Source: a virus (taxonomy: Duplodnaviria; Heunggongvirae; Uroviricota; Caudoviricetes). From it: a DNA stretch of 20,300 nt. The position numbers and the translations under genes were made by a program. The notes under the pieces are model-generated. The model searched no databases and had not been told where the DNA came from. It saw nothing but the letters and a program-made list of their open reading frames with translations. The stretch is from positions 1 through 20,300 of IMG/VR virus record IMGVR_UViG_2634166457_000006. One strand, 5' to 3'. Of this stretch, positions 14,454 through 17,992 are shown piece by piece; position 1 is the first letter of the stretch, and every line of letters begins with the position of its first letter.

Positions 14454-14768
14454 ATGCTACATGATCACCTGGCAGAATGTCTGGAGAAAAAAGGATTGTA
14501 CCGGAGAGCAGCTGAACGATGGGCAAAAGTGATGGTACAGCTAAGTGATGACCAGAAAAGGAAAGTAGCGGCACAGAAACGAGCAGAGTGTTTGCGTAAG
14601 GCGCGCCGGACTCCGGTTTCACCGGTGAACCTGACAGAAATAAAACAAGCGGTCAACAGACTACATTCTGAGTTGGGAATGGGATTTGAAGAGCGGCGGG
14701 TATTCCGACGATATAAAGGGACAGGAGAACAGAATACGTCCGGAAACGCGCGGTCAAAAAAATGCTAA
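14454..14768 (+). CDS. PerC-family transcriptional regulator-like protein (Pch-like), 104 aa
   Basis: N-terminal LEKKGLYRRAAERWAKVM resembles the PerC/Pch signature as recalled; strong GGAGGT SD; preceded by about 470 bp of AT-rich non-coding DNA. Confidence 0.5.
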   Translation: MLHDHLAECLEKKGLYRRAAERWAKVMVQLSDDQKRKVAAQKRAECLRKARRTPVSPVNLTEIKQAVNRLHSELGMGFEERRVFRRYKGTGEQNTSGNARSKKC

Positions 14769-14849: not shown

Positions 14850-15074
14850 TTAAGTAAACCTGTCTGAACAGGTGCTCTGGTCGTGTTTGTCTTTGTTGGG
14901 TACAAATTGAGAATGTTTTTCATTCATTAGTCTTCTTCTGCAGGCTTCAATAACCCACGCTGAAAAATTTCCTGAACCTTTCTGGTCAAGAGCGATGTTA
15001 ATTTGTTCAATCATCTGGTTTGGAAATCGGATGTTGCGGGTTGTTGTTCTGCAGGCCCGGTTTTTCGATGACAT
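14850..15074 (-). CDS. Ribbon-helix-helix-like DNA-binding protein, 74 aa
   Basis: NIRFPNQMIEQINIALDQKGSGNFSAWVIEACRRRL has a strand-helix-loop-helix pattern; good minus-strand SD (AAGGAA, 7 nt). Confidence 0.5.
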   Translation of the reverse strand: MSSKNRACRTTTRNIRFPNQMIEQINIALDQKGSGNFSAWVIEACRRRLMNEKHSQFVPNKDKHDQSTCSDRFT

Positions 15075-15115: not shown

Positions 15116-15481
15116 ATGGCTGAGCTTCGTACTCTTCAGGGCAGAATCAAAACACTGAATACCCGACGGGTGAATATCCTGAAGGGTGAACAGCGTCGTG
15201 TCAGTGGCAGTGCCCGGGTTTCCCTCAAACGTCGTATCTGGCTGAGGGATGCCGGACACTGTTGTCTCTGTGGACGCGTGGTTGACCTTTGTGACAGTGA
15301 ACTCGATCACCGCATTGCACTTCAGTTCGGTGGTGGTAATGAGGAGACGAATCTCTGGACGCTCTGTACCGAATGCCATCGCCAGAAGTCAGCCAGTGAA
15401 GTGGCGAGTGGTATGCCGGACCCGACGTTGCCGGAGGTGTCCGCAGGTAGTGTCAGGGCGGACGACATCACCGGACTGTAA
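15116..15481 (+). CDS. HNH endonuclease (terminase-associated type)
   Basis: CCLCGR...DHRIALQFGG...NLWTLCTECHRQK HNH/zinc motif, located just upstream of a cos-like region and terminase. Confidence 0.75.
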   Translation: MAELRTLQGRIKTLNTRRVNILKGEQRRVSGSARVSLKRRIWLRDAGHCCLCGRVVDLCDSELDHRIALQFGGGNEETNLWTLCTECHRQKSASEVASGMPDPTLPEVSAGSVRADDITGL

Positions 15482-15571
15482 CCCGACCCGGGGGGGTATC
15501 ATCCGGCGTGAAAAATGATCGCACCGGACACCGCCCCCCGTCTCACGCAGAGAAAAAATTCCCGTTTCAGG

Positions 15572-15696
15572 CCAGTTAACATGTTAACTGGCTGTCCGGG
15601 CATTTTTGTTATTTTTATCTTTATTATTCAGTTTGTTGCGTGGGAAAAATGTTAACCGGCTTTTTCAGCAAATGTTAACCAGGCAGCAGTTAACAT
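15572..15696. repeat. cos-proximal repeat cluster: 20-bp perfect palindrome CCAGTTAACATGTTAACTGG plus further ATGTTAAC(C) copies in both orientations
   Basis: Palindrome at 15572-15591; additional copies at about 15649-15657, 15672-15680 and inverted at 15689-15696; lies between the HNH and terminase small-subunit genes. Confidence 0.4.
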
Positions 15697-15771
15697 TCGG
15701 GGGCATGAAAGGCGGGATAAAACGGCCTGAAGCATGTCCGGCTGAGTGAGTTCTGAACCCGGGAGGAGACT

Positions 15772-16334
15772 GTGCTGACGACGCAAAAACGAAAATTTGC
15801 GCTGGCGCTCATGTCCGGGAAAAACAAAACGGCGTCAGCCATTGCTGCCGGTTATTCGGCGAAGACAGCCAGGGTTAAAGGCTCGCAGCTGGCAAAAGAT
15901 CCGGAAGTGCTCGCGTTTATAGCACGCAAAGAAGGCGAGACGGTGGAGGTGGATGAGGTTCCCGTTTACCGGCAGAAAAAACAGAGCAGGAGAATAAACC
16001 CCGTCGCTGTGAGACGGCTGCAATTCCACAGCCGGACGAAACCAATCCGGAGATGTCACCGCCCATGGTGATGTCTCCTGGTATTGAATATATGGAGGAT
16101 GGTCTTCCCGATCCTGTGAAAGCCATGGGGCGGATCCTGGTGGAAAACCTGAGCATTGACCCTAAACTGGCACTGGATGCAGCCTGGCGTCTGGCGCAGT
16201 TCACGCACCATAAAAAAGGGGATGCCGGTAAAAAATCGGCAAAAGGTGATGCCGCGAAAAAAGCGACTAACCGTTTTGCGGTGCCACCACCACCCCGCCT
16301 GGTGGTGAATAACGATAATGAGGACAGTGGATGA
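15772..16334 (+). CDS. Terminase small subunit, apparently split over two reading frames (15772-16071 and 16053-16334)
   Basis: N-terminal part has the TerS HTH signature (SAIAAGYSAKTARVKGSQL). The second frame is open from 15957 and ends with ATGA coupling to terminase large at 16331. The frames switch near an A6 run at 15976-15981. Confidence 0.5.
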
Positions 16335-17992
16335 TACCTGTGTGGAGTACGGCCTGCCCGGACTGGGCAGCGCGCCTGAAAAAGGGACTGTCGATTATTC
16401 CGGCTCCGATTTATCCGGACCAGGCCGCACATGCCCTGGCGATTTTTAAACAACTGCGGATTGTTGATGCACCGGGCAGCCCGACGTTCGGGGAGTCCTG
16501 TGCACCGTGGGTGTTTGACCTGGTGGCGGCCCTGTTTGGCTCCTACGATGCGCACACCGGTATCCGTCATATAAAGGAAGTGTTCATTCTGATCCCGAAA
16601 AAAAACAGCAAGTCCACACTGGCTGCCGGGATCATGATGACGGCGCTGTTACTGAACTGGCGGCAGGCGGCGGGCTACACCATTCTGGCCCCGACTGTGG
16701 AGGTGGCGGCTAACGCCTTCAACCCTGCCAGGGATATGGTACGACGGGACGATGATCTGGATGACCTCTGTCAGGTGCAGACACATATCCGGACCATCAC
16801 CCACCGGGTGACGGACACCACCCTGAAGGTGGTGGCAGCCGATCCGAATACGGTGTCCGGTATCAAGTCCGTGGGGACACTGATTGATGAACTGTGGTTG
16901 TTTGGCAAGCAGTATAAAGCGGAGGACATGTTACGTGAAGCCATCGGCGGGCTTGCCTCCCGTCCGGAAGGATTTGTGGTGTACACAACCACCCAGTCGA
17001 ATGAGCCGCCAGCCGGAGTGTTCAGACAGAAACTTCAGTACGCCCGGGATGTCCGTGACGGCAAAATTCATGATCCGCACTTTCTGCCGGTGATTTTTGA
17101 GCATCCGCCGGAGATGGTGGAGAGCGGTGAGCACCTGCTGATGGAAAACCTCGCCATGGTTAACCCGAATCTCGGTTATTCGGTGGATGAGGCCTTTCTG
17201 TACCGGGAGTACCGTAAAGCCCGCGAAGCCGGGGAAGAGACCTTCCGGGGGTTCATGTCAAAACACGCCAATGTGGAAATCGGTCTTGCCCTGCGTTCTG
17301 ACCGCTGGGCGGGGGCGGATTTCTGGGAACAACAGGGCATGTGCGTCAGCCTGGACGATATCCTGCTGCGCGCTGATGTGGTTACGGTGGGGATTGACGG
17401 CGGAGGGCTGGATGATCTGCTGGGGATGTACGTGATTGGGCGTGACCGGGAGACCCGCGAATGGCTGGGGTGGGGCCATGCCTGGGCACATGAAACCGCG
17501 GTGGTCAGACGGAAGAGCGAGGCGTCCCGGTTTCAGGATCTTGTTGCCTGTGGAGATATGACCATTGTCCGGCGTGTCGGGGATGACACGGCGGAAGTGG
17601 CGGAATATGTGCGTCGCATTCATGAGGCTGAGTTACTGGACCATATCGGTATTGATCCGTCAGGTGTGGGGCAAATTCTGGATTCACTGGCGGAAGCCGG
17701 GATCCCCGACGGAATTGTGGTGGGGATAAGCCAGGGCTGGAAACTGGGCGGGGCCATCAAAACCACCGAGCGCAAACTGGCTGAAGGGGTGCTGGTGCAT
17801 GGTGGCCAGCCCCTGATGGCCTGGTGTGTCGGCAATGCCCGGGTGGAGCCTAAAGGTAACGCCATTCTTATTACCAAACAGGCCAGCGGACGGGGAAAAA
17901 TTGACCCGCTGATGGCGCTCTTCAATGCGGTCTCCCTGATGTCCCTGAATCCGGAACCGAAAAAGAAAGCGTATGAGGTTTTTTTCATATAA
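16331..17992 (+). CDS. Terminase large subunit (HK97/Terminase_1-like)
   Basis: 553 aa, placed after TerS with ATGA overlap; N-terminal ATPase-like and C-terminal nuclease-like regions. Confidence 0.8.
   Translation: MIPVWSTACPDWAARLKKGLSIIPAPIYPDQAAHALAIFKQLRIVDAPGSPTFGESCAPWVFDLVAALFGSYDAHTGIRHIKEVFILIPKKNSKSTLAAGIMMTALLLNWRQAAGYTILAPTVEVAANAFNPARDMVRRDDDLDDLCQVQTHIRTITHRVTDTTLKVVAADPNTVSGIKSVGTLIDELWLFGKQYKAEDMLREAIGGLASRPEGFVVYTTTQSNEPPAGVFRQKLQYARDVRDGKIHDPHFLPVIFEHPPEMVESGEHLLMENLAMVNPNLGYSVDEAFLYREYRKAREAGEETFRGFMSKHANVEIGLALRSDRWAGADFWEQQGMCVSLDDILLRADVVTVGIDGGGLDDLLGMYVIGRDRETREWLGWGHAWAHETAVVRRKSEASRFQDLVACGDMTIVRRVGDDTAEVAEYVRRIHEAELLDHIGIDPSGVGQILDSLAEAGIPDGIVVGISQGWKLGGAIKTTERKLAEGVLVHGGQPLMAWCVGNARVEPKGNAILITKQASGRGKIDPLMALFNAVSLMSLNPEPKKKAYEVFFI

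Follow-up and report, generated by a model that had tools for sequence, protein, structure and literature searches.

A predicted HK97-type cos site with a candidate TerS-binding repeat array between the HNH and terS genes of a lambdoid prophage

Genes and features of the locus

The stretch of DNA analysed here (hereafter the window; 20,300 nucleotides, positions 1 to 20,300 of IMG/VR virus record IMGVR_UViG_2634166457_000006) is the late region of a lambdoid prophage and has ~90-92% identity to the E. coli Stx1a/Stx2c-phage family, of which BP-4795, 2851, 1717 and YYZ-2008 are members. Over 6366 bp it is identical to assembly GCA_001186315.2. Among E. coli genomes in which this module occurs, the median copy number is 2 and the highest is 8. 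The genes are ordered HNH, cos interval, terS and terL (Table 1), and the interval in which packaging sites had been proposed does lie, as the original prediction stated, with the HNH gene (15116-15481) on one side and terS (from 15772) on the other. The position of the HNH gene matches those of HK97 gp74, Bcep176 gp01 and the HNH gene of fEg-Aba01. The helix-turn-helix at the N-terminus of TerS is of the Terminase_2 type (Pfam E 1.7e-8; the intact homologue carries Pfam Terminase_2), and this domain has weak PDB matches to the DNA-binding domain of SF6 G1P. TerL is 98% identical to that of Lys8385Vzw and ~52% identical to those of fLi-Aba03 and fEg-Aba01, with a range of 48-60% to the TerLs of phages with a reported or predicted HK97-type cos (fLi-Aba03, Silvanus), and a BLASTP comparison with HK97 gp2 gave 23% identity over 461 aa (E 1e-11). 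Two further genes, of the PerC family (14454-14768, plus strand) and of the DUF3950 family (14850-15074, minus strand), are flanked by the lysis genes on one side and the HNH gene on the other, as moron-like cargo just 5' of the packaging module. A promoter scan of the region returned a single chance-level site on the minus strand, and the Rfam covariance models gave one chance-level match (E 0.89), inside the HNH gene.

In this prophage terS is split into two ORFs of 99 and 93 aa, an A-run at 15976-15981 being shorter by one base (A6). The sibling assembly GCA_011907385.1, with an identical HNH gene, has A7 and an intact TerS of 187 aa, and BP-4795 reads AAAAAAT; the A6 of the window would reflect either a genuine inactivating mutation or an error in sequencing. 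Unless it is the latter, the cos of this prophage would need TerS in trans, and a prophage with the frameshifted terS may not package itself.

Table 1. Positions of the packaging genes and of the predicted cos elements in the window, with the basis of each assignment
Feature	Position	Strand	Basis
HNH endonuclease gene (terminase accessory nuclease)	15116..15481	+	Pfam HNH PF01844, E 1.3e-6; relatives annotated HNH/DNase
G-run (G7), putative upstream cos element	15490..15496	+	35 nt before the overhang
GGACACC flank	15525..15531	+	GGACAC conserved across genera
Predicted cosN cohesive end CGCCCCCCGT, 10-nt 3' overhang	15532..15541	+	Homology to the mapped ends of Lys8385Vzw and fEg-Aba01
Left-end block CTCACGCAGAGAAAAAATTCCCG, predicted first packaged bases, with A6 tract	15542..15564	+	Cross-genus conservation
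22-bp palindrome of two inverted ATGTTAAC half-sites, candidate TerS site	15571..15592		Direct reading
ATGTTAAC copy in the left palindrome arm	15575-15582	-	Exact
ATGTTAAC copy in the right palindrome arm	15581-15588	+	Exact
T-rich spacer, T-tracts at 15603, 15612, 15620 and 15632	15593..15646	+	Possible intrinsic bend
ATGTTAAC copy 3	15649..15656	+	Exact; invariant in 66 variants
ATGTTAAC copy 4	15672..15679	+	Exact; invariant in 66 variants
ATGTTAAC copy 5, inverted	15689..15696	-	Exact; invariant in 66 variants
terS, Terminase_2 family, N-terminal helix-turn-helix	15772..16334	+	GTG start at 15772, GGAGGAG ahead of the start
terL, large terminase, HK97-like clade	16331..17992	+	Pfam TerL_ATPase and TerL_nuclease

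The cohesive end and the G-run

The cut was located by comparison with phages whose ends are available. In the induced Stx1 phage Lys8385Vzw, PhageTerm analysis of virion reads is reported to have classed the phage as cos-type, its 3' cohesive ends being CGCCCCCCCT and placed at the record end (PMC7946995), a PhageTerm call given in one sentence of that paper and with garbled printed coordinates. The record itself ends in ...GGACACCGCCCCCCCT and starts with CTCACGCAGAGAAAAAATTCCCG (CTCACGCAGAGAAAAAATTCCCGTTTCAGGGCAGTTAACATGTTAACTGG), which aligns to window positions 15532-15541 and 15542 onwards. In the case of fEg-Aba01, the 10-nt 3' cohesive ends 5'-CGCCCCCCAT were identified with PhageTerm, and a heat/cool restriction assay gave experimental confirmation (PMC7354433). 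They are annotated in its record, and the junction GGACAC/CGCCCCCCAT/CGCACGCACAAAAAAAATTCCC (slashes mark nicks) has flanks near-identical to those of the window, which reads GGACAC/CGCCCCCCGT/CTCACGCAGAGAAAAAATTCCCG when aligned on the nick. Furthermore, both ends of the record of the Burkholderia phage Bcep176 bear an identical stretch of 10 nt (CGCACGTTCC), which immediately precedes CTCACGCGCAGAAAATTTTCCC. These three anchors indicate that the cohesive end is 15532-15541, the overhang and flanks of Lys8385Vzw and fEg-Aba01 aligning base for base with 15525-15564. By transfer from such close homologs, the plus strand would be nicked at 15541/15542 and the minus strand at 15531/15532. The overhang CGCCCCCCGT recurs without change in phage 2851 and in many E. 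coli loci, and CGCGCCCCCT and CGCCCCCCCT are found as other alleles. The suggestion that cosN lies in this interval is therefore upheld by the mapped ends of Lys8385Vzw and fEg-Aba01, with the C-rich element as the overhang; cosN is not the palindrome.

The left-end block next to the overhang is kept in E. coli, Salmonella, 12 other enterobacterial genera, Bcep176 (CTCACGCGCAGAAAATTTTCCC) and fEg-Aba01 (CGCACGCACAAAAAAAATTCCC), and outside HK97 the left end starts with CTCACGCNCAGAAAAAATTCCC (nick-anchored sites, n=24). Several apparent ends in the databases were discarded as physical ends: two contig starts, at the C-run (L043) and at the palindrome (L046), are draft-assembly breaks in isolate genomes, the phi330 record begins at terL, and the Burkholderia vB_PR2a records are arbitrarily cut. 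With regard to the literature, that on the prophages of O157 Sakai treats only the lambda-type cos of Sp4 and Sp14, and neither a Genome Research 2025 paper on lambdoid phages nor a paper on seven Stx phages has data on a cos of the HNH-associated type.

To compare the surroundings of the cut, 24 cos sites were aligned on the nick (18 diverged enterobacterial loci, Salmonella SP-016, two kinds of E. coli satellite-like island, HK97, Bcep176 and fEg-Aba01). All of them have a G-run 32-35 nt 5' of the overhang, the intervening sequence being variable, and among E. coli relatives its length goes from 6 to 11 G. The dinucleotide AC precedes the overhang in the 24 sites and the overhang begins with CG in 22, the minus-nick junction (15531/15532 in the window) being AC/CG in these 22 of 24 sites, from Escherichia, Salmonella, Acinetobacter, Burkholderia and HK97. 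CG/GT is the nicking site of terminase-linked phage HNH nickases (PMC3592412), and the CG/GT junction of cos matches the nicking specificity published for such nickases of Gram-positive systems. The authors of the HK97 study suggest that TerL cuts one strand and the HNH protein the other (PMC11331095). From this proposal and the presence of CG/GT on the minus strand we infer that the minus-strand nick would be made by the HNH protein and the plus-strand nick by TerL.

The G-rich CCGGGGGGG at 15488-15496 and the C-rich CCGCCCCCCG at 15531-15540, which had been described as an inverted pair, are both present when the sequence is read directly, and folding this sequence alone pairs the two runs. 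However, the pairing is not conserved in 20 diverged relatives, and as a structure the pair does not stand. A conserved G-run/C-run hairpin was discarded on two grounds: in those 20 relatives shifted registers pair equally or better and the inner stems are ~50% paired, and HK97 and Bcep176 retain the G-run without a C-run, as their overhang is not C-rich. Because pairing between homopolymers does not depend on the register, the fold is no sign of a conserved hairpin. The satellite-like islands described below keep the G-run and little else, which argues that it is needed in cis, and a separate cis element with a cosQ-like or nuclease-positioning role is plausible.

Other arrangements were observed around the G-run. 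In the PPompW prophages (L125, LC567822.1, 746-2204) an IS110-family element, ISEc20, abuts the G-run (window ~15493); from the tRNA cluster to cos these prophages lack both the lysis genes and the HNH gene, leaving cos and terS without an adjacent HNH gene. At the right end of HK97 (L107, 630-690) the G-run is immediately preceded by an AT-rich block that contains GAAATCATTTCA and elements like AATGATA..ATTATCA, and a similar block is found ~20-90 nt 5' of the G-run in seven further loci (L012, L014, L016, L017, L018, L021 and L023). In these seven loci no HNH gene ends beside cos. The block is somewhat Fur-box-like.

The palindrome and the repeat array

The palindrome CCAGTTAACATGTTAACTGG that had been noticed at 15572-15591 was confirmed and extends to a perfect 22 bp, GCCAGTTAACA followed by TGTTAACTGGC (15571-15592). 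The window contains no other perfect palindrome >14 bp, and a palindrome of 22 bp appeared in 2 of 300 Markov randomisations. The ATGTTAAC motif was also correctly described as repeated in both orientations: five exact copies lie within 15575-15696, and the whole window has 6 against 0.58 expected, a number reached in 0 of 100 shuffles. Measured from the cut, the array spans +30 to +155, with the palindrome centre at +40 (+39/+40 in the short and long forms of the site) and copies 3, 4 and 5 at +108, +131 and +148 from the nick. The T-rich spacer between the palindrome and copy 3 is homologous to the AT-rich spacer of one satellite-like locus (L114). The five 8-mers are all invariant in 66 unique E. 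coli-family variants in which neighbouring bases vary, although these relatives are very similar to each other (most columns >95%) and the invariance is weak evidence alone; among the E. coli relatives the palindrome is likewise unvarying save for its 2 outer columns.

The origin of the palindrome emerges from other genera. In Salmonella SP-016 and 18 loci from >10 genera the spacer between HNH and terS is only ~105 bp, and the terS ATG coincides with the ATGTTAAC of the right palindrome arm, ATG TTA ACA encoding M-L-T. Ahead of the terS ATG, this short-form element carries GGAGGG as well as a left arm that is nearly symmetric, T[GA]T[AT]AAC, and the resulting GTAAAC-ATG-TTAAC element that overlaps the ATG in these 19 cross-genus loci has its centre at the same position (+40) as that of the palindrome. 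The codons ATG TTA ACA are invariant in 18 of the 19 loci and the later ones vary synonymously, and ATGTT[AT]AC occurs 41 times in the 2.2 kb of their cos blocks vs 6 times in the 93.7 kb outside. In addition, GTTAA-N5-TTAAC spans the terS ATG in Bcep176 and in a Pseudomonas relative. From these alignments, the palindrome is a relic of the ancestral terS start (ATG TTA AC), and the E. coli Stx lineage has lost the Shine-Dalgarno sequence, perfected the palindrome and gained a new GTG start at 15772. The ~184 bp between the palindrome and this GTG (15589-15771) hold the T-rich spacer and the three further copies. The short-spacer lineages have a second cluster of TerS-type motifs inside terS, past the DNA-binding domain, at +158..+225 from the terS start in L110, +158..+207 in L006 and +157..+176 in L118. 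The window lineage has no cluster inside terS, and its second cluster is upstream, in the extra segment of 184 bp.

The satellite-like islands of E. coli (L110-L116; L110, 1370-1730; L114, 1215-1720) have a G-run and cosN as in the window, their cos reading GGACAC/CGCCCCCCGT/CTCA (GGACACCGCCCCCCGTCTCA). They encode a primase with AAA_25 or D5_N, AlpA, small ORFs, a TerS homologue and a capsid-like gene, with terL not adjacent, and they look like satellites that would hijack the TerL and HNH proteins of this phage family. The DNA-binding domain of their TerS has diverged (28-31 of 56 residues identical, KGWQL in place of KGSQL), and at the place of ATGTTAAC they carry AGTTACAC, with two to six copies 5' of terS and four or five inside it; one island type has a homologous AT-rich spacer. 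Similarly, fEg-Aba01 has AAGTTAAA three times at the array position, and several lineages present a second motif cluster within terS. As the host and cosN are the same in phage and islands and yet the repeat tracks TerS, this pattern argues that the repeats are not read by a host factor or by TerL/HNH. The co-variation of the repeat with the TerS domain, drawn from few lineages that all share a GTTA core, is the strongest argument for TerS sites. All these data, namely the invariance of the 8-mers, the ancestral terS start, the islands' repeat that differs along with the TerS domain, and the position of the array at +30 to +155, where cosB lies in lambda and HK97, suggest that the palindrome and the ATGTTAAC array are most likely candidate docking sites for TerS, equivalent to cosB.

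We considered whether the repeats could be explained without TerS recognition of the array. The copies could be duplication or insertion debris at the ancestral terS start, functionless today, with TerS reading only the block adjacent to cosN. The positional homology between the right palindrome arm and the terS ATG of SP-016 and the 18 loci is in accordance with this, as are the 10-bp direct repeats CAGTTAACAT at 15573 and 15687, which flank a 114-bp unit, and the reading of copy 4 and the bases downstream as MLTRQQLTF, weakly like the TerS N-terminus MLTTQKRKF. However, in the 66 variants the 8-mers stay invariant whereas both their neighbouring bases and the remainder of the insert change, the non-coding left arm is also conserved in the cross-genus loci, and independent lineages have comparable arrays, each of its own motif, at the same place (the islands, fEg-Aba01 and the intra-terS clusters), so that we regard debris as an unlikely explanation. 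Slightly less likely still, in our judgement, is that the palindrome, together with its T-rich tail and the flanking arms AAAAATTCCCG/CGGGCATTTTT (15554-15625), is mainly a bidirectional intrinsic terminator that insulates the structural genes from non-antiterminated transcription. The RNA fold is indeed stable (-22.9 kcal/mol, z -3.8 on the plus strand; z -3.6 on the minus strand), with an A-tract before the stem and a U-rich tail after it (hairpin and T-tail at 15554-15607), but a consensus terminator scan does not call it, the hairpin is specific to the E. coli lineage and missing from the short-form cos sites of other genera, and variants such as CGGG>CAGG are uncompensated. Moreover, late transcription has to cross cos to reach the head genes and read-through is hence needed, and a terminator leaves copies 3-5 unexplained. 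The terminator-like fold may be a secondary property that could coexist with a cosB role.

That the repeats are bound not by TerS but by a phage regulator or by a nucleoid protein of the host (such as IHF or Fis) seems improbable to us. The spacer is AT-rich with roughly phased T-tracts, and lambda cosB contains an IHF site, but elements with the same host and the same cosN, phage and islands, differ in their repeats, which track their own TerS; the IHF consensus WATCAANNNNTTR was not found with <=1 mismatch within 15482-15771, and the late genes of lambdoid phages are under Q antitermination rather than an activator, which counts against a phage regulator. As for a small hydrophobic peptide of 24 aa starting at the ATG of the palindrome (15581-15655, MLTGCPGIFVIFIFIIQFVAWEKC), its frame is open and the 24 codons are kept in 59 of the 66 unique variants; however, it has no Shine-Dalgarno sequence, the ancestral GGAGGG having been lost, frame-changing indels occur in seven variants (six peptide forms), non-conservative substitutions are common and it has no Pfam match, and we give this reading almost no credit. 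The small ORF at 15581-15655, or 15515-15655 in its longer form, was discarded as a gene because of the lack of a Shine-Dalgarno sequence and of a Pfam match and the frameshifts in relatives.

A model of the site and its relation to known packaging systems

Taking these comparisons together, we propose, with a probability of roughly 0.7, that the region between HNH and terS is a complete HK97-type cos site composed of cosN and a ATGTTAAC array read by TerS. According to this model, the terminase (TerL and the HNH nuclease) would cut concatemeric DNA at cosN and leave the 10-nt 3' overhang CGCCCCCCGT, with the minus strand nicked at AC/CG (CG/GT), 15531/15532, probably by the HNH protein. Packaged DNA would start with CTCACGCAG (15542) and run rightward into terS and terL, and the G-run, 35 nt 5' of the overhang, would act as a cosQ-like or nuclease-positioning element in cis. 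The N-terminal helix-turn-helix of TerS would confer specificity by reading the ATGTTAAC array downstream of the cut, which is laid out as an inverted pair (the palindrome, at +40), a T-rich and probably bent spacer and the copies at +108, +131 and +148. The binding of TerS to ATGTTAAC, the assignment of the nucleases to the nicks, the role of the G-run and the bending of the spacer are the inferred parts of this scheme.

The HNH-terS-terL setting and the clade of TerL, as far as sequence can tell, would make this a cos of the HK97 type. The layout of the HK97 cos, with its 10-nt 3' overhang, has been described, and HK97 gp1 (TerS) recognises one site of 15 bp, from +15 to +29, within its channel (PMC11331095). 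Both phages have the order HNH (gp74), cos, TerS (gp1) and TerL (gp2) with homologous TerLs, a 10-nt 3' overhang (predicted in the window) that begins with CGCC right after GAC (AC/CG), a G-run 32-35 nt 5' of the overhang and an A/T tract in the first 30 bp of the packaged end. In contrast, the left ends are unrelated (GTTTGAATTT vs CTCACGCAGA), the similarity between the HNH proteins is marginal (E 0.088), and the TerS is of another family than in HK97, the only solved case, with a Terminase_2 protein facing an array of five copies. Since the HK97 TerS belongs to another family and has a single site, the repeat-array model is borrowed from lambda and SPP1. The likeness to Lys8385Vzw and fEg-Aba01 includes the cosN context (GGACAC before the overhang, CGCCCCCC(C/A/G)T as the overhang and C(T/G)CACGCA..AAAAAATTCCC after it), the spacing of the G-run and the TerL and TerS families; the overhang of the window differs from those of the mapped pair at one base (G at position 9). 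Of these two phages only Lys8385Vzw has the same palindrome and ATGTTAAC array, and fEg-Aba01 has a short spacer of 72 bp with three AAGTTAAA instead of ATGTTAAC. The papers on both phages contain no analysis of TerS sites.

The site also resembles that of lambda (cosQ, cosN and cosB with R3, I1, R2 and R1) in that an upstream element and a nicking site are followed by short repeats in both orientations, here candidate TerS sites, split by an AT-rich segment, here probably bent, the whole being placed between the cut and the start of terS. In a further likeness, satellites retain cosQ and cosN and alter cosB. However, lambda has a 12-nt 5' overhang, the winged-helix TerS gpNu1 and an IHF site, and needs no HNH protein, whereas in the window the overhang would be 3', TerS is Terminase_2 and not Nu1, the site is HNH-associated and 15482-15771 has no IHF consensus. 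With regard to SPP1/SF6, its TerS G1P (Terminase_2, the same Pfam family as here) binds several short repeated boxes in pac, in two clusters; SPP1 is a headful (pac) phage with neither defined cohesive ends nor an HNH partner. The recognition module would be closer in its organisation to lambda cosB or the SPP1 pac boxes than to the single TerS site of HK97.

Because the cohesive end of a near-identical phage had already been published, the site is essentially a known feature, correctly identified, and the current understanding of packaging is unchanged by this finding. The details added here are the exact nick positions, the fixed G-run, the AC/CG motif at the nick and a predicted motif for TerS, which co-varies between phage and islands. 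It is tempting, although still tentative, to extend these details to HK97-type cos sites across Proteobacteria, which would share a fixed G-run 32-35 bp before an AC/CG site nicked by the HNH protein, a second nick by TerL 10 nt beyond it and lineage-specific arrays with a GTTA core for each TerS, with islands that use their own TerS and AGTTACAC to redirect the TerL/HNH and capsids of a helper to their own DNA. If true, this would be an undescribed, position-fixed architecture common to such sites.

Finally, cos decides which DNA is packaged and transferred by Stx-converting and related prophages. Knowledge of the exact cut and of the probable TerS repeats aids the design of transduction assays with cos plasmids and the correct annotation of prophage ends. 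Furthermore, it could allow the prediction of which defective prophages and satellites are mobilised by which helper, and the prophage with the frameshifted terS studied here is an example of a candidate for such helper mobilisation.
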